From an uncultured Acidobacteriota bacterium (GTDB lineage: Bacteria > Acidobacteriota > Thermoanaerobaculia > Thermoanaerobaculales > Sulfomarinibacteraceae): a stretch of DNA of 64,000 bases. Of this stretch, positions 2,439 through 55,027 are shown in pieces. A program made the translations under genes and the position numbers. The stretch is taken from the NCBI GenBank assembly GCA_963844845.1, contig CAWJPW010000011.1:384476-448475 (forward strand), read 5' to 3'. The notes beneath the pieces are model-generated. The model searched no databases. It was not told where the DNA came from and saw only the letters and a list, made by a program, of their open reading frames with translations. Each line of letters begins with the position of its first letter. The first letter of the stretch is position 1.

Positions 2439-3515
2439 CTACTGGCGTTGTTCTCGGACCAGCGATAGGAAGTCGTCGTAGTCGCGGACGTAGTCCTCGG
2501 GCTCATAGCCGCGGTCTGCCAAGACTAGGAGAACAGCGTCTCTTGAATATTTGTATTGGACACTCCAAACCATGGGCTGAATGTGGACACCCACGGAAGG
2601 GGCGACGAGTTGTATCTCAGCCCGAGAGGAACCGTCGTCCACGATAAGACTGCATTCTCCCGCGACGCACACGAGAAACTCGTGCAGCTTGCGGTGCGCG
2701 TGCTCACCCCGCACGTTTCTGCTGGGGACGTTGAACACCGTGAAGAAACGGTGCGGCTCAAACGGGAGGTCGTTAGGTCTCTCGCCGACCATCAAACTCC
2801 CCCTGAGATCGGCAAACAGAGGGAGACTGTGCACCGTGACACCTCTGACTGAGACTCCTGCTGGGCCGCCGCCGGGCTCAGCTGACTGGGAGGCTGCCGG
2901 AGCCAACTCCGCGTCGACGTAACCCTTGATGTATGCCGGGTTGCCGACGACGATCGTTCTCGGCGGCACATCGGCGACCACCACCGCCCCGGCCCCCACC
3001 ATTGCGCCACGGCCAATGGTGACGCCGGGAAGCAGTGTGGCGTTTGCTCCGACCGATGCGCCCTGACGGACCAGGGTTCGTGGGTACTTGTCAATATGAT
3101 TCTTGGAGCGGGGAAACCGGTCGTTCGTGAAGGTCGCGTTCGGGCCGACAAACACATCATCTCCCAGCGTGACGGCGTCCCAGACTTGGACCCCACACTT
3201 GATCGTGACCCTGTCACCGATGACCACATCATTCTCGATGAAGACGTGGTCACAAATGTTGCAATCGCTACCGATCCTGGCTCCTGGCAGCACATGCGCG
3301 AACGCCCAGATCCTCGTTCGGGATCCCACAGTTGCTCCCGCTTCGACGAGTGCATTTGGATGGATAAAGGCTTCAGGATGGATCAAACCGTCCATGGGAT
3401 CGCTCTCCCTCCAATCGTCGGCGCGCACTCGCCGCTCTGAGACCTTGGCCATGCACGCGCCAGGCAATCCTCGTTCTGGCTGAGCTGCGCCGCGGTAGAC
3501 CCATGCGCTGCTCAC
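2439..3515 (-). CDS. WxcM-like bifunctional protein: N-terminal left-handed beta-helix N-acetyltransferase (FdtC-like) plus C-terminal FdtA-like cupin isomerase
   Basis: The N-terminal half has hexapeptide repeats ([20 protein letters not shown]...[31 protein letters not shown]...[25 protein letters not shown]). The C-terminal half ([15 protein letters not shown]...[27 protein letters not shown]) matches the WxcM C-terminal/FdtA pattern. The true start may be internal (MAKV at 3452 or MDGL at 3395). Confidence 0.8.
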
Positions 3516-3551
3516 CCAAGGTAGACGCGAGCCATTTGGCAGGTGACCAGC

Positions 3552-5357
3552 TCACGGAAACCCGCCAGCCGGCACCTTCGCCATCGCGCGGAAGGTCTCG
3601 TTCCGCGCCACCAGCTCGGTGTAGGTACCCTCGTCGACGACGCGGCCGTCCTCGATCATGACGATGCGGTCGGCGGGCTGGACGGTGGTGAGGCGGTGGG
3701 CGATGAGGATGATCGTCTTCTGCCCGGCGAGCTCGCGGATCGCGTCCATGACGGCGGTCTCGGTGACGCCGTCGAGGGCGCTGGTCGCCTCGTCCATCAC
3801 CAGCACCTCGGGATCGTGGTAGAGCGCGCGGGCGATGCCCACCCGCTGACGCTGGCCGCCGCTCAGGCGGACCCCCCGCTCGCCGACGACGGTGCCGTAG
3901 CCGTCCGGGAGGGTGGCGACGAACTCGTGCAGGTGGGCGATGCGGGCGGCCCGCTCCACCCGACACTCGTCGATCTCGTCGTCGGGCACGCCGAAGGCGA
4001 TGTTGCGCGCCACCGTGTCGTCCGCGAGGAAGATGTGCTGCGGCACGTACCCCACCTGGCGCCGCCACCGCGGGATCGTCGTCCCGTCCAGCACGGCGCC
4101 GTCCACCGTCAGCCGGCCCTCGTCCGGCTCGTACAGCCCCAGCAGGAGGTCGACCAGGGTGGTCTTGCCCGATCCGGTGCTGCCGACGATGCCCACCGTC
4201 TGGTTGCGCTCGATGGTCAGCGAGACTCCGTGCAGCGCCTCAAACGCCGCGCCCGGGTACCGGAACGACACGCCGGAGAGCTCGATCGCGTCGGCGAACG
4301 GCAGCGGGAGACGGTCGCCCTCCGCCGCGGGCGCATCCTCCGCGAACCGCGCCAGGTCCTCACAGAGCTCGTCCAGCGAGGCCCGGTTGAAGCGGATGCT
4401 GACCAGGGCGGCGAAGAGCGATTGCACCGCCGGCATCAGCCGGTAGCCGGCGAAGACGTAGAGGCCGGCGAGCGGGAGCACGGCGGTGAGCCCGCGGCCG
4501 GTGTTGAGCGCCACCACGACGACGAGGACGACCCCGCCGAACGCGAGGGTCTCGAGGAAGTAGCGCGGCAGCTGGCCGATCGTGGCGTTGGCGGCGAGCG
4601 CCTTCGTGAAACGTCGCGACGGCTCGGCGAACTGGGCGACGAAGGCCTCCTCGCGCTGCAGCACCTTCACGTCCTTGATCCCGCCGAAGGCCTCGCTGGT
4701 GACCTTGTAGCGCAGCCGGTTCGCCTCCACCCACTCGCGCCCGAGGCTCGACTGGCGCCGCCGCACCGCCAGGTAGACGAGCCCGTACAAGCTGCCGATC
4801 ACGGTCACCGCCGCCGCCGCCAGCCCGGGGCTCACCGCCACCAGCATCCCGGTGATGGCGACGACCACGAGGATCTGTGCCACGAAGGTGATCACCGGCC
4901 GGACCACGCCGGCCAGAGCCGCCCGCACCTCGCTGAGGATGTTCTTGTTCAGGGACGCCGAGTTGCGCTCGACGAAGAAGCCGTAGGGCTGCGCGAGGTA
5001 GCCGCGCAGCAGGCGCATGGCGAGCTCGTGGTTGGCGTCCCAGACGAAGCGCTGCATCGTCCAGGTGAACAGGGCGCTGAGCCCGTTGCTCAGCACCAGC
5101 AGCGCCAGCACGACCACCCCGGCGGCCACGAGGAACCCCGAGTCGGTGGTGAAGCCGCCGCGGCCGTAGAGCCACTGCAGGTACCCCCGGCTGTGGATCG
5201 CGCCGGGGTTGGCGGCGAGCTCGAGGAACGGCGCCACGCTGGCGACACCGAGGAGCTCCACTCCCGCCCGGACGATCAGAGCCGCGAGCAGGAGCGCCGC
5301 CTGGACCCGCTGGCGGCGGGTCAGGAGGCTGATGAGCTGGCGGATCAGTTTCGGCAT
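3552..5357 (-). CDS. ABC exporter, fused permease/ATPase (MsbA-like type I exporter)
   Basis: 601 aa with an N-terminal 6-TM-like region. Walker A is GSTGSGKTT, signature is LSGGQRQR, Walker B is VLVMDEATSALD. Confidence 0.9.
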   Translation of the reverse strand: MPKLIRQLISLLTRRQRVQAALLLAALIVRAGVELLGVASVAPFLELAANPGAIHSRGYLQWLYGRGGFTTDSGFLVAAGVVVLALLVLSNGLSALFTWTMQRFVWDANHELAMRLLRGYLAQPYGFFVERNSASLNKNILSEVRAALAGVVRPVITFVAQILVVVAITGMLVAVSPGLAAAAVTVIGSLYGLVYLAVRRRQSSLGREWVEANRLRYKVTSEAFGGIKDVKVLQREEAFVAQFAEPSRRFTKALAANATIGQLPRYFLETLAFGGVVLVVVVALNTGRGLTAVLPLAGLYVFAGYRLMPAVQSLFAALVSIRFNRASLDELCEDLARFAEDAPAAEGDRLPLPFADAIELSGVSFRYPGAAFEALHGVSLTIERNQTVGIVGSTGSGKTTLVDLLLGLYEPDEGRLTVDGAVLDGTTIPRWRRQVGYVPQHIFLADDTVARNIAFGVPDDEIDECRVERAARIAHLHEFVATLPDGYGTVVGERGVRLSGGQRQRVGIARALYHDPEVLVMDEATSALDGVTETAVMDAIRELAGQKTIILIAHRLTTVQPADRIVMIEDGRVVDEGTYTELVARNETFRAMAKVPAGGFP

Positions 5358-9321: not shown

Positions 9322-9420
9322 CACAGACCTCCGAGCAGACGCCAGACACTGTACGAAAGACGGGGCGATGAGGGAAGGGGGCGCGTGGGAGCCGTGGCCC
9401 TGGCAACGCTGCTCCATGGG

Positions 9421-10046
9421 CAGGCGGGGGGTGTAGGCGCGGAGCTTCTCCGCGCCACCAGGGCGCCCACCGGGCGTGCTCCGCTTGCCTGGCCCGGCCG
9501 ATCGCCGTGGGTCGCCGGAACCCCCGCCCCCGCGCCAACGCCAAGGGTGGCGCGCGAAAGTCGCGCGCCTACACCGGCGGAGCGTCGGCTGCTTCGACGA
9601 GGCGTCATGGGCGGGCGGGGGGTGTAGGCGCGGAGCTTCTCCGCGCCACCAGGGCGCCCACCGGGCGTGCTGCGCTTGCCTGGCCCGGCCGATCGCCGTG
9701 GGTCGCCGGAACCCCCGCTCCCGCGCCAGCGCCAAGGGTGGCGCGCGAAAGTCGCGCGCCTACATGGGCATGGAATTCACAGCCCCGGCCCGCGCCAAGG
9801 GCGACCCATCGACCGCGTCGGCCTCCCGAGGGCGGGCGGGGGGTGTAGGCGCGGAGCTTCTCCGCGCCACCAGGGCGCCCACCGGGCGTGCTGCGCTTGC
9901 CTGGCCCGGCCGATCGCCGCGGGTCGCCGGAACCCCCGCCCCCGCGCCAACGCCAAGGGTGGCGCGCGAAAGTCGCGCGCCTACACCGGCGCGGGATCGG
10001 CTGCAACGCGGGCGATCGACCCCGACGCCTGGGGCGCGCCTACACC
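9421..10046. repeat. Left block of REP-doublet units (3 units plus a half-REP)
   Basis: Each unit runs GGTGTAGGCGCGGAGCTTCTCCGCGCCACC ...~95 nt... GGTGGCGCGCGAAAGTCGCGCGCCTACACC, that is two GC hairpins in inverted orientation. Unit spacing is 191 then 221 bp. A half-REP GGGGCGCGCCTACACC at 10031-10046 contains the RAYT stop codon. Confidence 0.9.
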
Positions 10047-10567
10047 TTGGGTTCCAGAGCCTGATGCCACAGGATGTCTTCGGGGCTCCTGGAGGCATCG
10101 AGGAGATCGCCCAGGTTCGGCCACATCAGCGAACCCGACGCTCCCCAATCGGCCCAGTGCTCCACCAGGCCCTTGCGCACCGGATTCTCGATGATGTACC
10201 ACACCGTCGCTGCGATCCCGTCCAGCCGGCGGATTACCCGGTCGTGGTACCCGCGCTGCCACACGGGGCCCTCAGCACGCTCATGCCGCAGATTGCGAGC
10301 TACTACCGCTTTGAATGCCTGGGCGAACGCTCGCGGCGACCTCAGCGGAGTCACCACCAGGACATGAACGTGGTCAGGCATCACGCAGTACGCCAGGGTG
10401 CGCCATCCCACCTCATGGAGGTTGCCCAGAACAGCCAGTGCAACCTCGGAAACGCCGGCCCGGCTGAGCAGGGGCTGCCGATTCGCGGTGCACATCGTCA
10501 GCAGAACGAGCCGACGCTTCTCTGCAAATACACAATCGTCGAGATGGTGGAGCTTGCGACGCAGCAC
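10040..10567 (-). CDS. REP-associated tyrosine transposase (RAYT; IS200/IS605-like Y1 HUH transposase)
   Basis: 175 aa. Has the HUH motif PDHVHVLVV, an N-terminal LLTMCTANRQPLL, and a C-terminal WYIIENPVRKGLV (the Y..NPVRxGLV helix typical of RAYTs). Flanked on both sides by inverted REP hairpins. GTG start. Confidence 0.8.
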   Translation of the reverse strand: MLRRKLHHLDDCVFAEKRRLVLLTMCTANRQPLLSRAGVSEVALAVLGNLHEVGWRTLAYCVMPDHVHVLVVTPLRSPRAFAQAFKAVVARNLRHERAEGPVWQRGYHDRVIRRLDGIAATVWYIIENPVRKGLVEHWADWGASGSLMWPNLGDLLDASRSPEDILWHQALEPKV

Positions 10568-10619
10568 CTATCGATGATAGCCGCGCCGCCCTCTTGCCCG
10601 CACCGCACGCCAACGGGCA

Positions 10620-12102
10620 GGGCGGGCGGGGGGTGTAGGCGCGGAGCTTCTCCGCGCCACCAGGGCGCCCACCGGGCGTGCTGCGCTTGCCTGGCCCGGC
10701 CGATCGCCGTGGGTCGGGGGAACCCCCGCCCCCGCGCCAACGCCAAGGGTGGCGCGCGAAAGTCGCGCGCCTACACCGGCATGGAATCCACAGCCCCGGC
10801 CCGCGCCAAGGGCGACCCATCGACCGCGTCGGCCTCCCGAGGGCGGGCGGGGGGTGTAGGCGCGGAGCTTCTCCGCGCCACCAGGGCGCCCACCGGGCGT
10901 GCTCCGCTTGCCTGGCCCGGCCGATCGCCGCGGGTCGCCGGAACCCCCGCCCCCGCGCCAACGCCAAGGGTGGCGCGCGAAAGTCGCGCGCCTACATGGG
11001 CATGGAATTCACAGCCCCGGCCCGCGCCAAGGGCGACCCATCGACCGCGTCGGCCTCCCGAGGGCGGGCGGGGGGTGTAGGCGCGGAGCTTCTCCGCGCC
11101 ACCAGGGCGCCCGCCGGGCGTGCTCCGCTTGCCTGGCCCGGCCGATCGCCGCGGGTCGCCGGAACCCCCGCCCCCGCGCCAACGCCAAGGGTGGCGCGCG
11201 AAAGTCGCGCGCCTACACCGGCATGGAATTCACAGCCCCGGCCCGCGCCAAGGGCGACCCATCGACCGCGTCGGCCTCCCGAGGGCGGGCGGGGGGTGTA
11301 GGCGCGGAGCTTCTCCGCGCCACCAGGGCGCCCACCGGGCGTGCTGCGCTTGCCTGGCCCGGCCGATCGCCGTGGGTCGCCGGAACCCCCGCCCCCGCGC
11401 CAACGCCAAGGGTGGCGCGCGAAAGTCGCGCGCCTACACCGGCATGGAATTCACAGCCCCGGCCCGCGCCAAGGGCGACCCATCGACCGCGTCGGCCTCC
11501 CGAGGGCGGGCGGGGGGTGTAGGCGCGGAGCTTCTCCGCGCCACCAGGGCGCCCGCCGGGCGCGCTGCGCTTGCCTGGCCCGGCCGATCGCCGTGGGTCG
11601 CCGGAACCCCCACCACGGCGCCAGCGCCAAGGGTGGCGCGCGAAAGTCGCGCGCCTACACCGGCATGGAATTCACAGCCCCGGCCCGCGCCAAGGGCGAC
11701 CCATCGACCGCGTCGGCCTCCCGAGGGCGGGCGGGGGGTGTAGGCGCGGAGCTTCTCCGCGCCACCAGGGCGCCCACCGGGCGTGCTCCGCTTGCCTGGC
11801 CCGGCCGATCGCCGCGGGTCGCCGGAACCCCCGCCCCCGCGCCAACGCCAAGGGTGGCGCGCGAAAGTCGCGCGCCTACACCGGCATGGAATTCACAGCC
11901 CCGGCCCGCGCCAAGGGCGACCCATCGACCGCGTCGGCCTCCCGAGGGCGGGCGGGGGGTGTAGGCGCGGAGCTTCTCCGCGCCACCAGGGCGCCCGCCG
12001 GGCGTGCTGCGCTTGCCTGGCCCGGCCGATCGCCGCGGGTCGCCGGAACCCCCACCACGGCGCCAGCGCCAAGGGTGGCGCGCGAAAGTCGCGCGCCTAC
12101 AC
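10620..12102. repeat. Right block: 7 near-identical tandem 221-bp REP-doublet units with a 442-bp higher-order pattern
   Basis: Exact 221-bp phasing of GGTGTAGG heads. Units 5 and 7 share the variant CACCACGGCGCCAGCGCC in place of CGCCCCCGCGCCAACGCC. The 65-nt linker contains an AT-richer core, CATGGAATTCACAG. Confidence 0.9.
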
Positions 12103-12164
12103 TGGCGGGGGGTCGGCTGCTTCGAGGCGTCATGGGCGATCGGGTGAGCGCCCCCCGGTCTCCC

Positions 12165-13388
12165 CTACCCCACCGCCAGGCTGCGGTAGTACTCCGCCGC
12201 GCGCTCCAACCCCTCGCCCAACCCCACCTCGGCGGCGAAGCCGAGGGCGTCACGAGCGCGCGTGGCATCGGCCATGGAGTGGCGCACGTCGCCGGGGCGG
12301 GGCTCGCCGTGGATAGGCTCGGGGCCGCCACCGGCTGCCGCCCGCACCAACCGAGCCAGCTCGTTCACCGTGGTGCGGCTGCCCGGGGCGACGTTGTACG
12401 CCCGCCCACACGCCTCCGCCGAGGCGCCGGCGGCGTGGAGATTGGCGGCCACGGCGTCGGCGACGAAGGTGAAGTCGCGGCTCTGCTCGCCGTCGCCGTG
12501 GATGAGCGGCGGCTCGCCGGCCAGGCTGGCGGCGAAGAAGCGCGGGATCACCGCGGCGTAGGCCCCGGCGGGATCCTGGCGCGGGCCGTAGATGTTGAAG
12601 TAGCGCAGGCCCACCAGCTCCATGGCGTAGCAGGCGGCGAACAGCTGCGCCAGCTCCTCGTTCATGACCTTGGAAAGAGCGTACGGCGACAGCGGCATCC
12701 CCTCCTCGCCCTCACGCTTGGGCAGGGTGTCGGAGTCGCCGTACACGCTGGAGGAGGAAGCGTAGACCAGCCGGCGGACGCCGGCGTCGCGGGCCGCCGC
12801 GAAGACGTTGGCGGTGCCGGCGACGTTCACCGCAATGCTGGTGGCGGGATCGGCCATGGAGCGCGGCACCGAGCCCAGGGCGGCCTGGTGGAAGACGTAG
12901 ACGGGAGAGGGAAGACGGGAGACGGGAGACGCTTTCCCCCACCCACCCGGGGCCTCCGCGGTACCGGCGCCTGAGACCCCATCCGTCGGTACCGGCGCAG
13001 CCGGCTCGGTGGGGTCGGCGTCGGGGTCGGTGCGGCCGGTCATCGCCGAGGTCACCAGCGCACCGCGGCCACCGAGGCCGGCGCGCCCGTCGAGGGGCTC
13101 GAGCCCCATGGCGAGGCGGCAGTCGCCCGCGTTGCGGATATCGCCCAGAACCACGGTGACGGGCGCCACCGACGAGGCGACGACGGTGGGCAGCGGCGCC
13201 GCGGCGAGGGCCTCACGCTCGGCCGGCGCGAGCAGGTGGGCGAGGTTCTCGACCCTTCCTGTGGCGAGGTTGTCGAGCACGGTGACCCGTGCACCCCGCT
13301 CGAGCAGCGCATCCACGAGGTGGGAGCCGATGAAGCCGGCGCCGCCTGTTACAGCCACCGGCACGTCACGAAGCATCGGAATGGTCAT
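12165..13388 (-). CDS. NAD-dependent UDP-sugar 4-epimerase (WbpP/TviC-like extended SDR) carrying a 67-aa in-frame insertion
   Basis: Rossmann motif VTGGAGFIGSHLV, HQAALGSVPRS, catalytic SPYALSK, and GLRYFNIYGPRQDPAGAYAAVIPRF. The protein is 407 aa versus about 340 typical. The extra segment between GDIRNAGDCRLAMG and VYVFHQAALG corresponds to 12903-13103. Confidence 0.85.
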   Translation of the reverse strand: MTIPMLRDVPVAVTGGAGFIGSHLVDALLERGARVTVLDNLATGRVENLAHLLAPAEREALAAAPLPTVVASSVAPVTVVLGDIRNAGDCRLAMGLEPLDGRAGLGGRGALVTSAMTGRTDPDADPTEPAAPVPTDGVSGAGTAEAPGGWGKASPVSRLPSPVYVFHQAALGSVPRSMADPATSIAVNVAGTANVFAAARDAGVRRLVYASSSSVYGDSDTLPKREGEEGMPLSPYALSKVMNEELAQLFAACYAMELVGLRYFNIYGPRQDPAGAYAAVIPRFFAASLAGEPPLIHGDGEQSRDFTFVADAVAANLHAAGASAEACGRAYNVAPGSRTTVNELARLVRAAAGGGPEPIHGEPRPGDVRHSMADATRARDALGFAAEVGLGEGLERAAEYYRSLAVG

Positions 13389-13394
13389 GTCGCT

Positions 13395-13823
13395 TCAATC
13401 CTCCTGGTCGATTGGCGGCGCCGGCTGGGGAGACGAAAGACGGGAGACGGAAGACGCTCTGGTCCCACAATCCCGCAACGTGGTCACCAGGCCGGAGAGC
13501 AACGCGAAGACGCGCTCGAGGGACCTGGCGGCCGGGGCTCCGCGTCCAACAGGGAGAAAGCCGAGCTGATGAGCGATCCTCAGCTGAGTGTCAAGCTCGA
13601 CGAGCGAGCCTCGGGCCATCATCAAGAACCGAAGGAAGTCCTTGTCGGTACCGCGCGCCGCTCCCTCAGCGATGTTGCAGGGCACGGAGACGGCTGCGCG
13701 CCTCATCTGGGACGTGAGCCCGAAGACCTCCTCGCGCGGGAAGTCTGACGTCGCGCGGTACACGTGGGAAACGAGCTCGATCGCCTCCTGCCAAACCTCG
13801 AGATCGTGATGTCGCAGCCTCAT
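13395..13823 (-). CDS. Four-helix-bundle protein ('23S rRNA intervening-sequence protein' family, Avd-like)
   Basis: HHDLEVWQEAIELVSHVYRATSDFPREEVFGLTSQMRRAAVSVPCNIAEGAARGTDKDFLRFLMMARGSLVELDTQLRIAHQLGFL is a textbook match to this family. The last ~20 aa (TRASSVSRLSSPQPAPP...) are read-through into the flanking repeat arm. Confidence 0.9.
   Translation of the reverse strand: MRLRHHDLEVWQEAIELVSHVYRATSDFPREEVFGLTSQMRRAAVSVPCNIAEGAARGTDKDFLRFLMMARGSLVELDTQLRIAHQLGFLPVGRGAPAARSLERVFALLSGLVTTLRDCGTRASSVSRLSSPQPAPPIDQED
13427..13466 (+). repeat. Purine-rich arm (type A) of the inverted pair flanking the four-helix-bundle gene
   Basis: GGGGAGACGAAAGACGGGAGACGGAAGACGC (13427-13457) matches the reverse complement of 14045-14075 at about 26/31 positions. 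Confidence 0.8.
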
Positions 13824-14024
13824 GGACTCACTCCAGCCAGGCGATTCACGAGATCATGCCCCAACCCTTGAGCAAATGCACCCGACCGAGCAAGCTCGAT
13901 CATTGCCATTCACCCGAACAACTCGGCGTGGCCCAGAGGTTATCTCCGAGTTCGCAGGGAGGTTGCACCCTCGATTCTGTTCGGCGCGGACGAGCGGAAG
14001 GCCCCGACCGCTCGCCGGCCCGGA

Positions 14025-14078
14025 CCCCGGGCGGGCGGGGGAAAGCCTCTCCCGTCTCCCCTTTTCCTTCTCCCCTAC
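14025..14078 (+). repeat. Pyrimidine-rich arm (type B) with G-rich head
   Basis: CCCCGGGCGGGCGGGGGAAAGCCTCTCCCGTCTCCCCTTTTCCTTCTCCCC. Its reverse complement is GGGGAGAAGGAAAAGGGGAGACGGGAGAGGC.... It ends 3 nt before the dehydrogenase stop codon (14081-14083). Confidence 0.8.
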
Positions 14079-14080
14079 TC

Positions 14081-15403
14081 TCACGCCTTCACGACATTGG
14101 GACGCACTTCCCGGTACACCCCCCTCGTGTCGACGATGAGCGGTACGTGCCTGGCGATGTGCTCGTAGTCCACGCTGCTGTGGTCGGTGACCAGGACCGC
14201 CGCGTCGAGGTGGCGGAGGTAGCCGTCGCTGAGCGGCTGGGAGGCCATCACCGGCAGCTCGGGCCAGGAGCGCATGGCGGGCGCCACCGGAATGTGCGGG
14301 TCGTGGTAGCTGACGTCCGCCCCCAGGCGCAGGAGGCGGTCGAGGATCTCGAAGGCCGGGCTCTCGCGCGGGTCGTCGATATCCTTCTTGTAGGCGAGGC
14401 CGAGCACCAGGACCTTGGCCCCCTTCACCGCCTTGCCGTGCTCGTTGAGGGCCAGCTGGAGCTTACCCACAACGTACTCCGGCATCTCCACGTTGATCTC
14501 GCCGGCGAGCTCGATGAACTTGGGAGCGACGCCGTACTCGCGGGCCTTCCACGAGAGGTAGAAGGGATCCAGCGGGATGCAGTGGCCGCCCCACCCCGGG
14601 CCGGGGTTGAAGCGCATGAAGCCGAAGGGCTTGGTGGCGGCGGCGTCGAGCACCTCCCAGACGTCCACGCCCATGCGGTCGTAGACGACCTTGAGCTCGT
14701 TGACGAGGGCGATGTTGACGGCGCGAAAGATGTTCTCCACCAGCTTGGTGGCCTCGGCGGCGCGGGCCGAGGAGACGCGCACGGTGCGGGCGATGACCTG
14801 GGCGTAGAGGGCCTCGGCGAGGTCGCCGGAGACGGCGTCGACGCCGCCCACCACCTTGGGGATGGTGGTGGTGCCGTAGTCGGGGTTGCCGGGGTCCTCA
14901 CGCTCGGGTGAGAAGGCGAGGAAGAACTCCTCGCCACAGCGCAGCCCCGTGCCCTCGAGCACGCCGCAGAGGAGCTCGTCGGTGGTGCCGGGGTAGGTGG
15001 TGGACTCGAGCACGACCAGCTGGCCCGGGCGCAAGCACGGCTTGATCTGGTGCGCGGTGTTCACGACGTAGGACATGTCCGGCTCGCGCTGGGGGGTGAG
15101 CGGCGTGGGCACGCAGATGAGCAGTGCGTCGGGCTCGCCGAGGCGGAGGAAGTCGACGGTGGCGGTGAGACGCCCGTCGGCGACCACGGTCTTCAGCCGA
15201 TCGCCGTCGAGGTGCTTGATGTAGCACTCGCCGCGGCCGAGGGCCTCGATCTTGGCCGGGTCGACGTCGAAGCCGATGACCTGGAAGCCCTTCTCGGCGA
15301 AGGCGAGGGCGAGCGGCAGACCCACGTAGCCGAGCCCGATGATGCCAACCGTGGCCTCGTGGCTTTCGATGGCCGTTCTCAGGCCGCTCGCGTGCTGACT
15401 CAT
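14081..15403 (-). CDS. Nucleotide-sugar dehydrogenase (UDP-GlcNAc/UDP-ManNAc 6-dehydrogenase, TviB/WbpA/WecC-like)
   Basis: From the ATG at 15403: MSQHASG...VGIIGLGYVGLPLALAFAEKGFQVIGFD...ICVPTPL...GFMRFNPGPGWGGHCIPLDPFYL...LGLAYKKDIDDPRESPA. The track ORF (to 15613) over-extends upstream. Confidence 0.9.
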   Translation of the reverse strand: MSQHASGLRTAIESHEATVGIIGLGYVGLPLALAFAEKGFQVIGFDVDPAKIEALGRGECYIKHLDGDRLKTVVADGRLTATVDFLRLGEPDALLICVPTPLTPQREPDMSYVVNTAHQIKPCLRPGQLVVLESTTYPGTTDELLCGVLEGTGLRCGEEFFLAFSPEREDPGNPDYGTTTIPKVVGGVDAVSGDLAEALYAQVIARTVRVSSARAAEATKLVENIFRAVNIALVNELKVVYDRMGVDVWEVLDAAATKPFGFMRFNPGPGWGGHCIPLDPFYLSWKAREYGVAPKFIELAGEINVEMPEYVVGKLQLALNEHGKAVKGAKVLVLGLAYKKDIDDPRESPAFEILDRLLRLGADVSYHDPHIPVAPAMRSWPELPVMASQPLSDGYLRHLDAAVLVTDHSSVDYEHIARHVPLIVDTRGVYREVRPNVVKA

Positions 15404-15458
15404 GACAGCTCTCCCTTCGCAGAGGCGCCGCGCGGAGGACCGGCGGGCGGGCGCCCGT

Positions 15459-17660
15459 CTACGTCTTCTCCGTGGATACCGGCTGCTTCTCGTAGCCGTA
15501 GTGGTAGTAGGAGTAGTGGTACGAGTAGGCGTGGTCGCGGCGGATGTTGACCTTGTTGAGCACCGCGCCAGCCACCCGGGCGCCGGCCCGGTTGAGCTGG
15601 CGCACGGTGTCACGCACCAGCTGACGGCGCACTCCGCCGTACTCCACGACCAGCAGCACCATGTCGACCAGGCGCGAGCACATCACCGCGTCGGTCACCG
15701 ACATCACCGGCGGGGTGTCGACGACGACCCAGTCGTAGCCCGAGCGGGCGCCGTCGATGAGCCTGAGGAACGCCTCGTTGCTGAAGAGCTCGGGCGGGTT
15801 GGGCGGCAGCGGCCCCGAGGTGACGACGTCGAGCCCCACCACCGACGGCGCGCGGTGGACGACGTCGGCGAGCTCGCTCTCGGCCAGCACCACCGAGGTG
15901 AGGCCGTGGTCATTGCCGCTCTCGAGGATCCGGTGCAGACGCGGCCGCCGCAGATCGGCGTCCAGCAGCAGCACCCGCGACCCCGCCATGGCAAGGGTCT
16001 CGGCGAGGCTGTAGGCGACCGTGGTCTTGCCCTCCTGGGGCGTCGCCGAGGTGACCATGAGGACGTGGGAGCCTTGGCCGTGCGCAGCCAGCATCACCGC
16101 GGTGCGCAGCGACTGGTAGGCCTCACGCACCGAGCCGCCGGTGCTTCCTTCGTGCTCGGGGAAGATCGCCAGGACATCGAGGCCGGTACAGCGCTCGACG
16201 TCCTCGGGGGTGCGCAGGCTCTGGTCGACGTAGTCGAGCAGGAAGACCATGCCGACGCCGAGGAAGAGGCCGAGAGCGAGCGACATCGAGATGCTGCGTC
16301 GGAGGTTGGGAGTGTAGGGTGCCTTGGGCGGCCGCGCCGGGTCGATGACCCTCACGTTGTTGAGGTCGGCGGAGGAGGAGATGTCCACCTCCTTGGAGCG
16401 CGACATCATCTCCTCGAGGAACGACTTGTTCTGGTCGTAGTCGCGCCTGAGCTTCTCGAACTCCATGGTCTGCTTGGAGAGGTCGATGGACTGGTTCTTG
16501 AGCTGCTGGATGTTGGCGTAGAGCGACTGCTCGCGGAGCTTCTTGATCTCGTAGTCGGCCTCGAGAGAGGTCAGGATCGTCTTGATCTGGGCGGCAATGC
16601 GGGCGTCGATCCCGTTGAGGCGCGAGCGCAGCTCCTTGATGACCGGGTGGCCCTCCTTGTAGGTGCGCAGCTTATCGTTGAGGTCCACCTCAACCGCGTT
16701 CTTCTGCTGCTGCAGCGACTGGATGGTGGGGTCGTTGAGCACTTCGGGGAAGCTCGTCTCGGCGATCTTCTCGGCGCGCAGCTGGCGCAGGGCGGCGATC
16801 TTGGTCTCCAGCTGGATGCGGTCGGCCTTGGCCTTGGCGTACTCGGTGGTGAGGGTGTTGACCTGCTCGGTAATGACGTTCTTGTCCTCGTCGGCGAAGA
16901 GCAGGGAGTCCTTGCGCTCGCGGAACTTGGTGAGTCTTTCTTCCGACTGCTCGACCTGCTCGCGCAGGGGCTCGAGCTTGGACTGGATCACCGAGTACAC
17001 CTGGCGGGTGCGCTCGAGGCTGTCGTCGATGTTGGCGGCGATGTACTCCTGGATGTACACGTTGAGCCACTCGGAGATGCGCTCGGCATCGGATCCGGTC
17101 ATGGAGATGATGAGAATGTCGGTGTCCTTGATGCGGCTCACGTCGATGGCGCCGAGCAGCCGGTTGGCCGCCGCCTCCTCGGCCGCAGGGTCGGAGGTGG
17201 GTGCGAGCCCCAGGCGCTCCACCACCCGCAGGGCCAACCGCTCGGTCCTGAGAACCTCGATTTGAGCGAGGACGTAGCGCTCCATCTTCCACCAGTCGAG
17301 GCCCACCGAGACATCGGACTTGACCAGGCGCGGCGAGGCCTCGAAGACGATCTTGGCGCTGGTGCGGTAGCGCTTGGGCCGGGTCCAGGCCCACGCCGCG
17401 CCGGCCAGCGTGACCACCAGGGCGACGGCCACCACCATCTTCCAGTGGGTGAGCAGGAGCCGGACATAGGCCATGACGTCGACGTCGTCGCCGGCCTCGC
17501 CGCCCCCGGGCGGCGGCGGCCACCCCGGGAACGGGCCGACGGCCCCCGGCGGCGGTGGGTAACCGGTGAACATGGGATCGTGGGAGTTCATCGGGTCGCG
17601 GTCGATGGCGTGCGCCCTCCTTTGGGCTCCAAGTGTAGAGGATTCTGTGGCCTGCGTCAC
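15459..17660 (-). CDS. Polysaccharide co-polymerase / tyrosine autokinase (Wzc/GumC-like)
   Basis: 733 aa with a chain-length-determinant region and long coiled coil. P-loop is VTSATPQEGKTTVA, DxD is LLLDADLRRP, and the C-terminal Tyr cluster is YSYHYSYYHYGY. GTG start; the exact start is uncertain. Confidence 0.9.
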   Translation of the reverse strand: MTQATESSTLGAQRRAHAIDRDPMNSHDPMFTGYPPPPGAVGPFPGWPPPPGGGEAGDDVDVMAYVRLLLTHWKMVVAVALVVTLAGAAWAWTRPKRYRTSAKIVFEASPRLVKSDVSVGLDWWKMERYVLAQIEVLRTERLALRVVERLGLAPTSDPAAEEAAANRLLGAIDVSRIKDTDILIISMTGSDAERISEWLNVYIQEYIAANIDDSLERTRQVYSVIQSKLEPLREQVEQSEERLTKFRERKDSLLFADEDKNVITEQVNTLTTEYAKAKADRIQLETKIAALRQLRAEKIAETSFPEVLNDPTIQSLQQQKNAVEVDLNDKLRTYKEGHPVIKELRSRLNGIDARIAAQIKTILTSLEADYEIKKLREQSLYANIQQLKNQSIDLSKQTMEFEKLRRDYDQNKSFLEEMMSRSKEVDISSSADLNNVRVIDPARPPKAPYTPNLRRSISMSLALGLFLGVGMVFLLDYVDQSLRTPEDVERCTGLDVLAIFPEHEGSTGGSVREAYQSLRTAVMLAAHGQGSHVLMVTSATPQEGKTTVAYSLAETLAMAGSRVLLLDADLRRPRLHRILESGNDHGLTSVVLAESELADVVHRAPSVVGLDVVTSGPLPPNPPELFSNEAFLRLIDGARSGYDWVVVDTPPVMSVTDAVMCSRLVDMVLLVVEYGGVRRQLVRDTVRQLNRAGARVAGAVLNKVNIRRDHAYSYHYSYYHYGYEKQPVSTEKT

Positions 17661-17685: not shown

Positions 17686-18315
17686 TCAGGCGCTCAGTGC
17701 CTTGAGCGCGTTGGCGTCCACCTCGATGCGGTGTCTGGCCCGCAGCATCTCCATGAGCACCCGCGCGCGCTGGCCGCCCCGCATGTAGCCGTGGAAGATG
17801 CCCTCGTAGCCCCGCAGCGGGCCGGCCATCACCCGGACCCTCTGGCCCTTGGTGAGCTTGTCGAGGAAGGTCTCGGGCACGATGTAACCGTGCTCGGCCT
17901 CCTTCTCGCGCAGGTAGTCGATGAGGCTCTGATCAACCGTGGCCAGCTCCCCCGCGAACACAACCGGGTGGAGAACGCCCGGGCAGAAGCGCACGGCGTT
18001 GAGCTCCTCGGGCAGCCGGCAGCTGACGAAGATGTAGCTGGAGAAGAGCGGCATCGGGCCACGTGGGGCCCGCGTGTGCCACGGCGGCTCGAGGAACATG
18101 GGGCAGTACGGCTCCACCCCCCGCTGGACAAGATGGCGCATGGCGATCCGCTCCTGGCGGGGCTTGGTCCGCATCACCAGCCAGTGCAGACTGCAGTCGA
18201 GCGCTACAGTATCGACGCGACCCTCCCTTTCTCGATCCTCGCCCGAATTATGTGAACCTCGCGCCCGCCGTGTCAAGGTGAGCCGGAGGAGGGGCAAGCA
18301 GTCTCGTGCCGCCAA
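17686..18315 (-). CDS. NusG-family specialised transcription antiterminator paralogue (RfaH/UpxY/LoaP/TaA-like)
   Basis: NGN-like HWLVMRTKPRQERIAMRHLVQRGVEPYCPMF...PLFSSYIFV. KOW-like GQRVRVMAGPLRGYEGIF. It is the first gene of the co-directional polysaccharide string. The start is uncertain: the track uses TTG at 18315, and the internal GTG/ATG at 18177/18174 would truncate the NGN strand. Confidence 0.75.
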   Translation of the reverse strand: MAARDCLPLLRLTLTRRARGSHNSGEDREREGRVDTVALDCSLHWLVMRTKPRQERIAMRHLVQRGVEPYCPMFLEPPWHTRAPRGPMPLFSSYIFVSCRLPEELNAVRFCPGVLHPVVFAGELATVDQSLIDYLREKEAEHGYIVPETFLDKLTKGQRVRVMAGPLRGYEGIFHGYMRGGQRARVLMEMLRARHRIEVDANALKALSA

Positions 18316-19566: not shown

Positions 19567-19576
19567 GGCCGGGCAC

Positions 19577-20160
19577 GGGAGACGGAAGTCGGTAGAAGGA
19601 AAACGCTTCCCCCGCCCGCCCCCGTGGCCGGGTGACCGGGGCAGGGACCGCGGCAGGGGCAGCGTCAGGGTCAGGGGCAGGGACAGGGGCAGGGTCCGGC
19701 GACCGGCGACCGGCGGCCGGGGCCGTGGACCGGGGCCGGGGCCGTTGGCAGGGGCCGGGACCGCGTGCGTGTGCGCGTCCGGGATCGTGGGTCGAGTCCG
19801 TCCCGGAGCACCTGCCCTCCGGCGGACGTGCCACCTCCGACACTTTTCCTTCGAGCGCCTCCTCGCGTTGAAGCGCGCTCGGGGAAACAGTGTCGGGGGT
19901 GGCAATCACGGCCCTTGGCGTTCGCAGAAGTGGCCCCGAACCACGAGGCAGGCGACTCGGCGCTGGGACCCGGGGGCGGCCTCGTTGCCGTCTGTCAGCT
20001 CGTGTCGTCGCCGCCCCCGGGGCCGCGTCGACGGGCGGCACAGCCGCCCGGGAGCCGGTCTCCGCAGCTGCGGTGACCGCGACCCTCGCGGAGGACCGCC
20101 GCACCCCGCAGCTGGGTGGGCGGGGGAAGCTTCTTCCTTCTCCCCCTCTTCCTTCTCCCG
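19577..20160. repeat. ORF-less composite cassette bounded by a type A/type B inverted arm pair
   Basis: Arm A (19577-19623) is GGGAGACGGAAGTCGGTAGAAGGAAAACGCTTCCCCCGCCCGCCCCC. The reverse complement of arm B (20115-20160) is CGGGAGAAGGAAGAGGGGGAGAAGGAAGAAGCTTCCCCCGCCCACCC. The interior holds a GGGNCA-type hexamer tract (19626-19770) and copy 1 of the ~250-nt structured repeat (19819-20068). Confidence 0.8.
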
Positions 20161-20207
20161 TGATCGGGCGCCGACACAGCCCTCCGTCCTTGCTATGATG
20201 AAGAGCT

Positions 20208-33433: not shown

Positions 33434-36400
33434 ATGACCCGCCTGGTGGAGCTCTCCCTCGCCCACCGGCTAGTGGTGATCCTGCTGGCCCTGATGCTGG
33501 TGGGGGCCGGCGTCACCGCCCTGCGCCAGCTGCCCATCGACGCCTTTCCCGACGTCACCAACATCCAGGTGACCGTGATCTCGCAGGCGGCCACCCTCTC
33601 GCCCATGGAGGTGGAGCAGCTGGTCACCTACCCCATCGAGCAGGCATGCGCCGGGCTGCCGCACTCCACCCAGGTGCGCTCGCTCTCCAAGTTCGGCCTC
33701 TCCATGGTGACGGTGGTGTTCGCCGACGGCACCGACATCTACTTCGCCCGCCAGATGGTGATGGAGCGCCTGTTCTCCGTGACGGGGGAGCTCCCGGCGG
33801 GAGTCCAGAGCGGCCTCGGCCCCATCTCCACCGGCCTCGGCGAGGTCTACCAGTACACCCTCGAGAGCGACACCCACAGCCTCATGGAGCTGCGCACCCT
33901 CCAGGATTGGGTGCTGCGGCCGATCCTGCGCACGGTCCCGGGGGTCGCCGGAGTGGACTCCTTCGGCGGCGAGGTGCGCCAGTTCCACGTCATCGCGGAC
34001 CCCACCGCGCTACGCCGGTACGGTCTCGCCCTCGAGGAGCTCGCCGCCGCAGTGGCGGCCAACAACGGCGTGGCCGGGGGTTCCTTCGTAGAGCGGGGCG
34101 GCGAGCAGTACGTGGTGCGCGGCGACGGCTGGGTGCGTGGCGTGGAGGACCTCAAGAACACGGTGATCTCCTACCGTGACGGCGTCCCGGTGCTGCTCGG
34201 CCAGGTGGCCAGCGTCGAGACCGGGCCGCAGATCCGCCAGGGCGCCATCACCCGCGACGGTGAGGGCGAGAGCGTCGCCGGCATCGTCCTGATGCTGCGC
34301 GGGGGATCCGGCCGCGACGTTGTGGAGGGCACCCGCGAGAAGCTCGAGCTGGCCCGCCGCTCGCTGCCCCCCGACGTGGACATCGTGCCCTTCTACGACC
34401 GCTCGGAGCTGGTCCACACCGCCCTCGGGACGGTGCAGAGCGCCCTCTTCCAAGGCGCCGTGCTGGTGGTCCTGGTGCTGCTCTTCTTCATGGGCCACCT
34501 GCGCTCGGCCCTGCTGGTGGCGCTGCAGCTGCCGGTGGCGGCACTGGCCACCTTCCTGGTCATGGACCTGGTGGGCCTGTCGGCCAACCTCATGACCCTG
34601 TCGGGCCTCGCCATCGCCATCGGCATGCTCGGCGACGGCGCCATCGTCCTGGTGGAGAACGCGGTGCGCCTACTTGGCGAGGCGCGGTCCGAGGGCGTCA
34701 ACCGCTGCGCCCTGATCCGCCAGGCCGCGGTGGAGGTCGTCCGGCCCATCGTCTTCGGGGTCGCGGTGATCATCGTCGTCTTCCTGCCCATCGCCTCGCT
34801 GCAGGGCATGGAGGGCAAGATGTTCGCGCCGCTTGCCTACACCATCACGATCGCGTTGGGCTGCGCACTGGTCCTCAACCTGACTCTCATCCCCGCCCTC
34901 GCCTCGCTGATTCTCAAGCCGGCGCCGGTGTTCGGGGGCGGGCGCATCCCCCACCCCGCCGACCTCGTCCGCCGCCTCTATCGGCCCCAGCTGCGCTGGG
35001 CCCTGGACCACGGCCTGATCGTGGTGGGCGTGGCCCTGGGGCTCCTGGTCGTGGCGGCGCTGGTGGCGCCCACCCTGGGCACCGAGTTCCTCCCCACCAT
35101 GGACGAGGGATCGGTGGTGGTGCAGCCCTTCCAGATCCCCTCGGTGTCGCTCCCCCAGGCGCTGGACACCGTGCAGCGCATCGAGCGCACCATCATGGAG
35201 CTCCCCGAGGTGAGCCACGTGGTGAGCCGCACGGGCCGCTCGGAGATCTCGGCCGATCCCATGGGAGTGGGTGAGAGTGACATGTACGTGCTCCTCAAGC
35301 CGCGCTCCGAGTGGACGACGGCCGGCACCAAGGCGGGCCTGGTGGCGGCGCTGCGCGACAAGTTGGCGACGATCCCCGGCGTCGAGTTCGGGTTCACCCA
35401 GCCGATCCAGATGCGGGTGGACGAGCTCCTCTCGGGAGTGAAGTCGCAGATCGCGGTGAAGGTGTTCGGCGACGACCTCAGCGAGCTCACCCGCCTCGGT
35501 GACGAGATGGCGGCGGTTCTCGCGGGGGTCGCCGGCGCCGCCGACGTCAAGACCGAGGCGGTCGAAGGCCTCGGCTACCTGGAGATCACCATGCGGCGTC
35601 CGCGCATGGCCCGCCTCGGCATCAGCGTCGCCCAAGTACGTTCCCTCATCGAGACTGCCATCGGCGGCCAGGTGGTGACCACTGTGCCCGAGGGTGACCG
35701 TCGCACCGACGTGGTCGTTCGCCTGCCGCGCGCGTTCACCGCCAACGTCGACAACCTCCGCGAGCTCCCCCTGGCCACGCCGGCCGGCGAGCGGGTGCTG
35801 CTGCGGGAGGTTGCCGACATCGACCTCGTGGGGGGGCCGGCGCAGATCTCGCGCGAGGACGGCAAGCGCCGCCTAGTGGTGGAGCTCAACGTGGTGGGCC
35901 GTGACATCGGCGGCTTCGTGGCCGAGGCGCAGCAGCGGCTCGCCGACAGCGTCCCCCTGCCCACCGGCTACTACGTCACCTGGGGCGGCCAGTTCGAGCA
36001 GCAGCAGCGGGCCATGGCCCGCCTCCGCGTCATGGTGCCGGTGGCTCTGCTGCTGATCTTCATCCTCCTCTACCTCAACTTCCGCGAGACCCGCCCGGTG
36101 TTTCTCATCCTCGCCAACATCCCGCTCGCCCTGGTGGGCGGGGTGCTGGGCCTCAAGCTGTCGGGGCTCTACCTCTCGGTGTCGGCCTCGGTGGGCTTCA
36201 TCGCGCTGTTCGGCATCGCCATCCTCAACGGCCTGGTGATGGTGGAGTTCTTCCGCAACCTCGAGGCCGAGGGGATACCGCGGCGGGACGCCATCCTCCA
36301 GGGCGCCGAGCTGCGCCTGCGCCCGGTGCTCATGACCGCGGCGACCACCGCCCTGGGCCTCATTCCCATGGTGTGGGCGAGCGGCGTGGGCTCCGAGGTC

Positions 36401-37312: not shown

Positions 37313-37482
37313 GGGGACCTCCCGAGGGCGTACGGTACACGGGCGGGACGGGAGATGGAAGAAGCTCCCCCTCCAACCGCTCAAGGACCCGGCAGGGACC
37401 GCGGTGCCGGTCCCGGTCCCTGCCCCTGCCCCGGCCCCGGACGCGGCCCGGTCTCCGATCCCCGTCCCGGTCCGGACCCGAT

Positions 37483-37730
37483 GCTCCGGACACCGGCTCC
37501 CGGGCGGCTCCACCGCCCGTCGGCGCGGTCCCGGGGGCGGCAGCGGCGTGCGCTGCCGCACGGCAACCAGGCCGCCCTCGGGCCCTCAGCGCCGAGTCGC
37601 CTGCCTGGTTGTTCGAGGCCACTGCTGCGAAGGGTGTACCCGTGGATTGCCACCCATGGCGTTTCCCCCAAGCGCGCTCCAAGTGAGGAGGAGCTCCCGG
37701 GAAGACGCCATAAGTGGCACGTCCCACCGG
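37483..37730 (-). repeat. Copy 2 of the ~250-nt structured dispersed repeat (orientation label arbitrary)
   Basis: Shares the near-identical module CACCGGCTCCCGGGCGGCTCCACCGCCCGTCGGCGCGGTCCCGGGGGCGGCAGCGGCGTGCGCTGCCGCACGGCAACCAGGCCGCCCTCGGGCCCTCAGCGCCGAGTCGCCTGCCTGGTTGTT with copies at 39201 and 39510. The distal hairpin arms are CCATGGCGTTTCCC (37654-37667) and GGGAAGACGCCAT (37699-37711). Confidence 0.85.
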
Positions 37731-37918
37731 AGAAACCCTGCTCCGTCACGGTCTCGGTCGCCGCCCCGGACGCGGCCCCGGGCCCGATGGACCGACGATC
37801 TCGGGTTGTCGTCGCGAATGCGAGGGCCTCCTATTCTAAAGAATCTCGAGAGAGCAGCGAGGCTGCTACACTGATTCCCTAGTCTGTCAGGGAGAATCTC
37901 GGCAGCAGGGGGTGATCC

Positions 37919-39199: not shown

Positions 39200-39200
39200 A

Positions 39201-39446
39201 GCGGGCACCGGCTCCCGGGCGGCTCCACCGCCCGTCGGCGCGGTCCCGGGGGCGGCAGCGGCGTGCGCTGCCGCACGGCAACCAGGCCGCCCTCGGGCCC
39301 TCAGCGCCGAGTCGCCTGCCTGGTTGTTTGGGGCGGGTACTCCGGGCGCTTCGGGCCGTCAGTGCCCCCCCGAACACTGTTTCCGCGATCGGGCTGCAAA
39401 TGAGGAAGCGCTCCAGGAAAAGTGTTCGGGACGGCACGTCGTGCGG
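39201..39446 (-). repeat. Copy 3 of the structured dispersed repeat
   Basis: Starts 2 nt after the beta-helix gene stop. Distal hairpin arms are CCCGAACACTGTTTCC (39369-39384) and GGAAAAGTGTTCGGG (39416-39430). Confidence 0.85.
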
Positions 39447-39509
39447 AGGGCCTGTGCTCCGGGACGGGGGGGGCTTCGATGAGCGCCATGGGATTGCTGG
39501 CAGGGGGTT

Positions 39510-39762
39510 CTGCGGGCACCGGCTCCCGGGCGGCGGCTGGCCCGCCGCCCGTCGGCGCGGACCCGAGGGCGGCAACGGCGTGCGCTGCCGCACGGCAACC
39601 AGGCCGCCCTCGGGCCCTCAGCGCCGAGTCGCCTGCCTGGTTGTTTGGGGCCACTGCTCCGGTCGCCAAGGGCCGTGGGAGCCCCCCTTGACGTTTCCCG
39701 CCAACGCACCGCAAGGGAGAGCGCGCTTGAGGGAAGACGTCAAGGACGGCACGCCCGCCGGA
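39510..39762 (-). repeat. Copy 4 of the structured dispersed repeat (direct tandem with copy 3, ~64-nt gap)
   Basis: Distal hairpin arms are CCTTGACGTTTCCC (39686-39699) and GGGAAGACGTCAAGG (39731-39745). Confidence 0.85.
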
Positions 39763-54956: not shown

Positions 54957-55027
54957 ATCCACAACCACCATCCCCCGCTCCTCCCAACCCCACTCACCTC
55001 CCGGAGCACAGATCCGCCGACGCCGTC

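Follow-up and report, generated by a model that had tools for sequence, protein, structure and literature searches.

To our knowledge, the protein encoded in the intervening sequences (IVSs) of 23S rRNA genes has been without a known role since 1993, and the heptamer repeats of bacteria (the short tandemly repeated repetitive sequences, STRRs, and GGGAATC arrays) are likewise unexplained. Correia-type MITEs, miniature transposable elements with inverted repeats, are co-transcribed with their neighbours, and RNase III cleaves them in the stem that their terminal inverted repeats (TIRs) form. The IVS of Coxiella burnetii is 428 nt long, has a 28-bp terminal stem at which RNase III cleaves it in vitro, and contains an open reading frame (ORF) of the PF05635 family (S23p) that is seemingly not translated in vivo (PMC4990558). 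As for the heptamer repeats, Rehm et al. (2015) reported ~186 GGGAATC arrays per Xanthomonas genome, with ~70 convergent inverted pairs, and also catalogued GGGGAYT arrays in Anabaena, the role of which was left open (PMC4692102). In this study, we analyzed a 64,000-nt stretch of an uncultured Acidobacteriota bacterium (positions 384,476 to 448,475 of contig CAWJPW010000011.1, assembly GCA_963844845.1; hereafter the window), and describe a 649-bp cassette on its minus strand, window 13427-14075, in which a PF05635 gene for a four-helix-bundle (4HB) protein lies between heptamer arrays.

With a probability of roughly 0.7, this segment is a hairpin-bounded cassette that was inserted at the junction of a nucleotide-sugar dehydrogenase (DH) gene and an epimerase gene, belongs to a widespread class, and is looped out of the mRNA. 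The class comprises a PF05635/TIGR02436 gene between convergent heptamer arrays, G-rich on the 5' side and complementary and C-rich on the 3' side, and the arrays take up the space that separates two co-directional host genes. The parts of the cassette and its two flanks are listed below in the order of the operon transcript.

14081-15613, minus strand: DH gene of the UDP-ManNAc/GlcNAc DH type, the 5' flank of the cassette; the true start is likely near 15406.
14044-14075, minus strand: 5' arm of purine-rich heptamers (GGGGAGA AGGAAAA GGGGAGA CGGGAGA GGCU), beginning 5 nt past the DH stop codon.
14010-14043, minus strand: inner extension of the 5' arm, GCTTTCCCCCGCCCGCCC..., common to other arm-bearing elements of the window.
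13824-14009, minus strand: leader from the 5' arm to the 4HB start codon, with a lower GC content (55-60%) and no Rfam hit.
13395-13823, minus strand: 4HB protein ORF of 142 aa (PF05635/TIGR02436), the core of which ends near residue 120; its stop codon is 6 nt before the epimerase ATG.
13427-13458, minus strand: 3' arm A, pyrimidine-rich on the transcript (GTCTTCC GTCTCCC GTCTTTC GTCTCCC), within the tail of the ORF, with 38 nt separating it from the downstream epimerase start.
12165-13388, minus strand: TviC/WbpP-like NAD-dependent epimerase gene, the 3' flank of the cassette, with its ATG at 13388.

An earlier reading made from the sequence only had proposed inverted arms at 13427-13457 and 14045-14075 with ~26 of 31 positions matching. 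These were recovered by a repeat search as 32-nt arms (13427-13458 and 14044-14075), 585 nt apart and 81% complementary by Watson-Crick pairing, and a local alignment allowing G-U pairs gave the arm pair a z of 7.0 against 100 composition-matched shuffles. In the minus-strand RNA, 28 of the 32 arm positions pair when G-U is allowed. The folding of this strand, which had been suggested as a check, left the arms paired in both the minimum free energy (MFE) and the centroid structure of 13380-14100, with a mean pairing probability of 0.86. The complementarity runs further inward via the shared motif GCTTTCCCCCGCCCGCCC to ~13500 and ~14010 (14010-14075 against 13427-13500, 72% over 74 nt). The arms are tandem heptamers with the unit GRRAGAC (period 7/14 in Tandem Repeats Finder), and the periods of 7, 14, and 21 found at 12890-12931 and 13428-13456 indicate head-to-tail 7-nt units. 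For the motif GGGAGACGGAAGAC, 10 matches were counted in the window, where 0.85 would be expected. As the sequence-only reading had stated, both arms are close to the flanking genes, albeit its distances needed slight correction: the right arm is separated from the DH stop codon (14081-14083) by 5 nt (14076-14080) instead of 3, and the gap between the left arm and the epimerase ATG, given as ~40 nt, is exactly 38 nt.

The 4HB ORF is intact and keeps every family-invariant residue. It matched PF05635 with an E value of 2e-34 (118 bits against a cut-off of 33.8; residues 7-109 on profile positions 2-104 of 106), TIGR02436 with 111 bits against a cut-off of 24, and XCC0516 (PDB 2GSC) with an E value of 8e-31. 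Since the relatives of the protein are ~120 aa long, the final ~20 codons of the ORF (142 aa), encoding RASSVSRLSSPQPAPPIDQED, are regarded as read-through of the 3' arm, as had been supposed from the sequence. We also noticed that gene callers extend other 4HB ORFs into their arms (e.g., protein hits P0008 and P0011), leaving the artefact tails MRRETGEGRRERGEGEE at the N-terminus and TSRVSRLTSREP at the C-terminus; these peptides are marks of GGGAGAC-type arrays in protein databases. No further 4HB copy was found in the window by tblastn, and a weak match at 35623-35781 was rejected as spurious, being inside an RND pump gene. PADLOC gave no defence-system hit. Only one locus among 2.9 million viral contigs carried a relative of the 4HB protein, which makes phage carriage unlikely.

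Judging from sequence similarity, the 4HB protein is distantly homologous to Avd, the accessory protein of diversity-generating retroelements (DGRs): it showed weak similarity to the NCBIfam model DivGenRetAVD (E value of 1.8e-4, below the cut-off) and the PHROG Avd model (6e-9). These matches are what would be expected if the gene were an orphan Avd left behind after a DGR lost its reverse transcriptase (RT) and its template and variable repeats (TR/VR). We consider such an origin very improbable. The scores for TIGR02436 and PF05635 are far above those for Avd, no RT domain was detected among 13 neighbouring products scanned with Pfam (1306-25283, with gaps), and 13300-14200 contains no TR/VR direct repeat pair (~100-150 bp, differing at adenines), the self-BLAST of the cassette returning arm matches only. 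In addition, the arm-ORF-arm layout recurs in dozens of loci devoid of DGR parts, and the single relative among the viral contigs mentioned above speaks against this origin as well.

The recurrence of the layout was assessed with 80 loci, fetched from many phyla, that carry 4HB homologues of 41-64% identity, 77 of which were scored. In each locus, the 400 nt upstream of the ORF were aligned with the reverse complement of the downstream region and compared with 100 shuffles, and 59 DH genes without a 4HB gene were used as the controls. Arms with a z of 3 or greater were present in 56 of the 77 loci but in only 2 of the 59 controls, and those with a z of 5 or greater in 35 loci and none of the controls. 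The stem-bounded layout that the sequence-only reading had proposed to look for around other 4HB-family genes was therefore found to be a general one. The best arm period was 7 or 14 in 46 of the 56 loci with a z of 3 or greater. In these 56 loci, a median of 14.5 nt separates the end of the 5' arm from the start codon, and a median of 6.5 nt lies between the stop codon and the beginning of the 3' arm. The long leader in the window is atypical of the family, in which usually only 0-30 nt separate the 5' arm from the start codon, and no homologue of this ~220-nt leader was found among 180 fetched loci. G exceeds C in the 5' arm of 54 of the 56 loci; this convergent polarity is fixed and belongs to the inverted repeat as such. 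The 56 loci comprise ~45 heptamer classes, always complementary across the ORF, and the similarity of heptamers tracks protein identity weakly (Spearman coefficient of -0.11). Most of the homologous cassettes are 415-720 nt in size. Where the upstream neighbour is co-directional, the array begins within ~12 nt of its stop codon in ~25 of 36 cases.

We can regard chance complementarity of low-complexity purine and pyrimidine tracts as already refuted. It is true that the arms are of low complexity and that the window, at ~70% GC, contains many simple repeats; nevertheless, the z of 7 against shuffles, the more than tenfold excess of GGGAGACGGAAGAC, and the contrast between 4HB loci and controls all speak against it.

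None of the loci checked was associated with rRNA. The Rfam search of the 64-kb window at the gathering threshold detected no family, hence no rRNA, and the cassette is flanked by the DH and epimerase genes rather than residing inside a helix of a 23S or 16S rRNA gene. Likewise, 0 of 20 homologous loci had an rRNA context in the same search, which returned one tRNA and one S-adenosylhomocysteine (SAH) riboswitch, neither of them at a cassette. By tracing identical proteins to their contigs, we found a cassette that splits dnaK and dnaJ, the arms filling two 33-nt gaps; metK/ahcY and, in Xanthomonas, accB(bccP)/XCC0516 are other split pairs. In the dnaK/dnaJ loci (L170-L175), the repeat units themselves supply the final codons of dnaK together with its stop codon. 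The heptamers differ between the cassettes of Nostoc punctiforme (GGGTGTG and AGGAGTC) and between those of Nostoc ATCC 53789 (GGGAAAA and AGGAGTC), and thus the heptamer belongs to the cassette and not to the genome; a single heptamer specificity shared genome-wide is ruled out by such a strain.

The state of the junction without the cassette was sought by scanning the DH protein against metagenome contigs, which yielded 80 loci with DH sequences of 54-77% identity (synteny was traced by DH, as the closest epimerases, P0130 and P0132, are in other contexts). In at least 11 of the 80 (L092, L096, L098-L101, L108-L110, L117, and L127), an epimerase gene begins 0-70 nt past the DH stop codon or overlaps it; the epimerases at these empty sites are 56-78% identical, and the stop and start codons overlap as ATGA in L100 and L117. 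As DH and epimerase genes are adjacent without an insert in at least 11 relatives, the cassette is an insertion, and both the survey of empty sites and the claim that the cassette fills the junction of a normally adjacent gene pair turned out in favour of the sequence-only reading. Only 3 of the 80 DH loci have a 4HB gene, directly after DH in L090 and L133 and 1.4 kb downstream in L123; L090 and L133 bear perfect arms of other heptamers, GAGACGC and GGTTACG, respectively. In a further locus (L082), the same GGGAGAC heptamer starts from the DH stop codon, with a 4HB protein of 64% and a DH of 69% identity, and another (L083) has a 4HB protein of 56% identity and the same heptamer in the gene order DH, ATPase, cassette, epimerase. 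Comparison of these sequences indicates that the junction has been occupied repeatedly or for long, being empty in most relatives. The DH of L083 also contains an unrelated in-frame insertion of ~146 aa at 134-575, composed of duplicated short repeats that translate as ...CHPEGAERPKDP... and ...SVIASERSERSNP..., a further case of repeat elements tolerated inside coding sequences in these lineages.

The loci with the same heptamer invite another explanation, in which the cassette is a long-resident, domesticated module instead of a selfish insert, its protein and stem serving the operon, e.g., by dividing or stabilising the long transcript or by setting the ratio of DH to epimerase. L082 keeps its cassette at the DH stop codon despite the divergence of both proteins, L083 keeps one in the same operon, the ORF retains all the family-invariant residues, and the ORF ends 6 nt before the epimerase start. 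On the other hand, most DH-epimerase loci lack the cassette, homologous cassettes are found in unrelated operons (dnaK-dnaJ, metK-ahcY, accB-accC, and cmr3-cmr2; PMC3936711), and no functional partner is consistent. We therefore judge domestication to be decidedly unlikely. Two other identities do not fit. An integron gene cassette was rejected, as the repeats flank the ORF on either side and are mutually complementary, and no integrase was present among the scanned neighbours. A MITE or Correia-like element would account for the TIRs, but there is no duplication and the ORF is intact.

Returning to the inserted hairpin-bounded cassette, we propose how it could be accommodated. No sigma-70 promoter or intrinsic terminator was recognisable in 13300-14200, so the cassette should be co-transcribed with the operon. 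Once transcribed together with the operon, the arms would pair in the RNA as a duplex of at least 32 bp with the insert looped out, which would bring the DH stop codon back near the ribosome-binding site of the epimerase. Such restored proximity could explain why inserts are tolerated between tightly coupled genes, like IVSs in rRNA helices. The duplex, a predicted stem only, is a plausible substrate of RNase III. The 4HB frame opens in the loop and continues across the 3' arm to a stop codon 6 nt ahead of the epimerase ATG, so that translation of the epimerase would be coupled to that of 4HB. In the last and least supported step, the 4HB protein is most likely a nucleic-acid-binding factor that would act on the heptamer arrays of its own cassette for propagation or maintenance, and arrays without an ORF may be its non-autonomous partners. 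The empty sites and the family-wide layout support the earlier description of an IVS-like cassette in an mRNA operon; the label "selfish", which was attached to that description, is inferred from the patchy presence and from the sites between housekeeping gene pairs.

Several observations weigh against this proposal. No target-site duplication is visible at the cassette flanks (GGCT|...|TACT). Identical cassettes keep their context across samples and their position is stable in close strains, and the GGGAATC arrays of Xanthomonas are 90% conserved in position between two species (PMC4692102), neither of which favours recent mobility. Both neighbours are co-directional in only 24 of 50 loci by crude ORF calling, and the IVS protein of Coxiella is apparently not made in vivo (PMC4990558). 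At the RNA level, the arm mismatches of 57 loci displayed no bias toward pairs retained in RNA (125 G-U on the sense strand versus 143 A-C, p = 0.30), so that the arms resemble inverted repeats evolving at the DNA level, the RNA copies of which would fold as well. Finally, the window contains another partner for the 5' arm:

12895-12969, minus strand: 3' arm B, an inverted copy of the 5' arm (82% match to 14013-14074) inside the epimerase coding sequence.

Of the copies, arm B matches the 5' arm best (12903-12969 against 14010-14075, 82% over 67 nt), and in the folding of 12700-14300 the 5' arm was paired with arm B (p of 0.85) and not with arm A (p of 0.0). Because transcription reaches arm A first, and arm B is within a translated region, either duplex may be formed in vivo, and the predicted competition complicates the simple picture of one stem.

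The even distribution of mismatches bears directly on the principal rival, in which the arms have their main role in the DNA, as terminal repeats or as sites of recombination or slippage through which insertion, rearrangement, or maintenance is mediated. The 4HB protein or a host factor would bind them, or they would form a cruciform or G-quadruplex (G4), and the RNA stem would be a by-product. Besides the symmetry of the transition mismatches (125 and 143), the G-rich-first polarity is inherent in an inverted repeat and independent of the ORF orientation. Array lengths vary: L175 and L170 differ at the dnaK end by a single AAGTGAAG unit. In one metagenome contig, a cassette of the metK/ahcY type is joined to an MFS transporter gene exactly at the outer (GTCTGAA)n edge, such that the same cassette has different upstream genes, with 9 units in L178 versus 12 in L179/L180 (2380-2500). 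Moreover, GGGAATC arrays are G4-competent and are present singly as well as in pairs (PMC4692102). Nevertheless, the difference between L178 and L179 at the junction could be a metagenome assembly chimera at the repeat, and many heptamers (e.g., GTGACAA and GAGTGAG) have no G-tracts. The arrays, which have no promoters or terminators, abut stop and start codons of co-directional genes and would be transcribed anyway, and RNase III cleaves the stems of homologous rRNA IVSs in vitro (PMC4990558). Taken together, we consider a mainly DNA-level role somewhat unlikely, and retain the looped-out cassette as the preferred reading.

The cassette heptamer is not restricted to the DH-epimerase junction. 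A tolerant scan detected six arrays of it in the 64 kb against 0-1 in Markov controls, and two pairs of them are convergent (13427/14075 and 19567/20163). The arrays and the features associated with those outside the cassette are as follows.

12895-12937, 13425-13460, 14044-14076, 19567-19601, 20141-20163, and 37342-37365: the six arrays.
12921-13082, minus strand: in-frame insertion of 54 aa at residues 103-156 of the epimerase, which none of the aligned relatives has and which ends in the arm copy.
19567-20163, plus strand: a second element, bounded by arms of the same heptamer family and without a 4HB ORF, between an aminotransferase gene on one side and an SNF2 helicase gene on the other.
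37342-37365, minus strand: solo 3'-type arm of the same heptamer family, downstream of a copy of a 280-nt repeat and ~40 nt upstream of the start of an SDR gene.

The 5' arm (19567-19606) and 3' arm (20112-20163) of the second element pair with a probability of 0.78, and its cargo consists of a (CCGGGG)n tract and a structured repeat of ~280 nt. This ORF-less element is closer to MITEs and Correia elements than the 4HB cassette is, but it also lacks a target-site duplication. The insertion in the epimerase has weak similarity (63-65%) to the 3' part of the element (19977-20161), which suggests that it is a truncated element fossilised in the coding sequence. Elsewhere, hairpins of the resident heptamer without an ORF were found near 4HB cassettes in L008 (4781-4888) and L063 (5023-5165). 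The latter locus (2920-5165; AGTGATG-class heptamer) is arranged as a 5' array, a 4HB gene, a 3' array, two small ORFs that are toxin-antitoxin-like by reading of their translations alone, a second 3' array, a membrane protein gene, and the ORF-less hairpin, and therefore offers multiple alternative pairing partners, as does the window.

The ~280-nt repeat is intergenic and present in five copies with ~75% identity: 19790-20075 on the plus strand, 37475-37780, 39195-39480, and 39505-39790 on the minus strand, and 54650-54965 on the plus strand. It has a conserved multi-helix fold with 16 base pairs changed on both sides, gave no Rfam match at an E value of 1 or lower, had no match in any fetched locus, and could be a novel structured RNA or a MITE. 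A pyrimidine heptamer arm follows three copies of the repeat, counting the fragment in the epimerase insertion. Hexamer-type tracts (CCGGGG and CGGTCC; 22 and 12 copies) are located at 19622-19763 and 37402-37473, within the two ORF-less arm-bearing elements, with an arm on one side and the 280-nt repeat on the other.

The minus strand of the window around the cassette encodes an exopolysaccharide-type operon in the order NusG-like, Wzc-like, DH, cassette, and epimerase genes, followed further downstream by ABC-transporter, FdtA/hexapeptide, and DegT genes. The closest homologues carry names that indicate Thermoanaerobaculia (Acidobacteriota). The two genes upstream of DH are the following.

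17686-18315, minus strand: NusG-family gene at the head of the operon.
15459-17660, minus strand: Wzc-like chain-length/tyrosine-kinase gene.

A perfect 13-nt GC-rich inverted repeat, AGCCGGCGCCGCC and GGCGGCGCCGGCT, was noticed at 13334-13346 and 13414-13426; one copy abuts the 3' arm of the cassette and the other lies within codons of the Rossmann motif of the epimerase, and in RNA the repeat would put the ribosome-binding site and start codon of the epimerase in a 67-nt loop. Downstream of the epimerase, tandem arrays of 191-bp and 221-bp units (9415-9764 and 10619-12106; 97% identical, ~1.8 and ~6.7 copies, respectively) flank both sides of an ORF for an IS200-like Y1 transposase (10040-10567, minus strand) that resembles transposases associated with repetitive extragenic palindromic (REP) sequences (RAYT-like). 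A REP-like hairpin, GGCGCGGAGCTTCTCCGCGCC, lies within the units of these arrays, and the whole block is inside the polysaccharide operon, with the epimerase on one side and the downstream genes on the other.

The heptamers of Xanthomonas link the cassettes to arrays that have already been catalogued. The 4HB cassettes of Xanthomonadales (L052 and L055) have GGGAATC/GGGAATG arms, and in the supplementary table of PMC4692102, array #15 is placed at a distance of six nt from bccP (XCC0517), with an overlap into the start of XCC0516, which is the PF05635 protein of PDB 2GSC; the gene family is unmentioned in that paper. Conversely, a survey of cas genes found 23S_rRNA_IVP genes flanked by cmr3 and cmr2 and took this as a functional association (PMC3936711). 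No paper tying heptamer arms to PF05635 genes outside rRNA was found in a literature search of partial coverage, which makes a prior description possible. The wrapping of 4HB genes in cassette-specific convergent heptamer arrays with ORF-less partners appears undescribed.

We tentatively advance a broader reading, at somewhat less than even odds, in which PF05635 4HB genes and heptamer-repeat hairpins are two halves of one unrecognised element class that spans phyla. Each cassette lineage may have its own heptamer and a protein acting on arrays of it, and the non-autonomous derivatives may include the other arrays of the window, the hairpins in L008 and L063, the ~186 arrays of Xanthomonas, the STRRs of cyanobacteria, and the rRNA IVSs without an ORF. 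If true, this would unite the IVS ORF, the IVS hairpins, and the simple heptamer repeats of bacteria, and give the IVS protein a function. Regardless of this reading, the locus and ~100 relatives place the 4HB gene normally outside rRNA and mostly within complementary heptamer arrays, at tightly linked pairs such as dnaK-dnaJ, accB-accC, metK-ahcY, and DH-epimerase. The functions of the IVS protein and of the heptamer repeats are thereby made testable: does the stem insulate or process the operon mRNA, and does the protein recognise its own heptamer? The cassettes and arrays are also of practical concern for annotation, as they cause read-through artefacts of ORFs, with N- or C-terminal tails such as RRETGEGRRE or SRVSRLTS, can introduce in-frame insertions into genuine genes, the epimerase of this locus being an example, and are misread as functional associations in studies of gene neighbourhoods, including those of cas loci (PMC3936711).

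Among the known systems, Avd shares with the 4HB protein a homologous four-helix-bundle fold, both being grouped by CDD (PMC10053308), and is itself a basic factor that binds nucleic acid and RT; here, in contrast, heptamer arms are the defining context, and no RT or template/variable repeats were found nearby. The arrays of Xanthomonas (GGGAATC) and of Nostoc and Anabaena (GGGGAYT, STRR-type) resemble the arms described here in being tandem heptamers that are mostly intergenic and transcribed, often as two convergent arrays that form an inverted repeat. They are present in many copies per genome, six arrays having been counted here in the 64-kb window, and were treated as G4-forming simple repeats (PMC4692102). 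Most of the heptamers in this study are not G4-competent. Correia elements are alike in that they are short, have inverted ends, lie between genes in operons, form a long hairpin in mRNA, and alter or insulate the expression of their flanks; unlike the cassette, which has an ORF, a cassette-specific heptamer, and no visible duplication, they have no ORF, a fixed TIR, and a TA target duplication. The ORF-containing 23S rRNA IVSs of Leptospira and Coxiella (PMC4990558) share with the cassette a PF05635 gene, a stem of ~28-32 bp around the ORF, a sporadic presence, and a comparable size (428-759 nt versus 649 nt here). RNase III cleavage has been demonstrated for IVSs, whereas the duplex here is predicted from the sequence alone, and further features of the cassette are the leader of 220 nt and the second 3' arm that competes with the first. 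In contrast to the IVSs, the host transcript of the cassette is a protein-coding operon and its arms are arrays of tandem heptamers.

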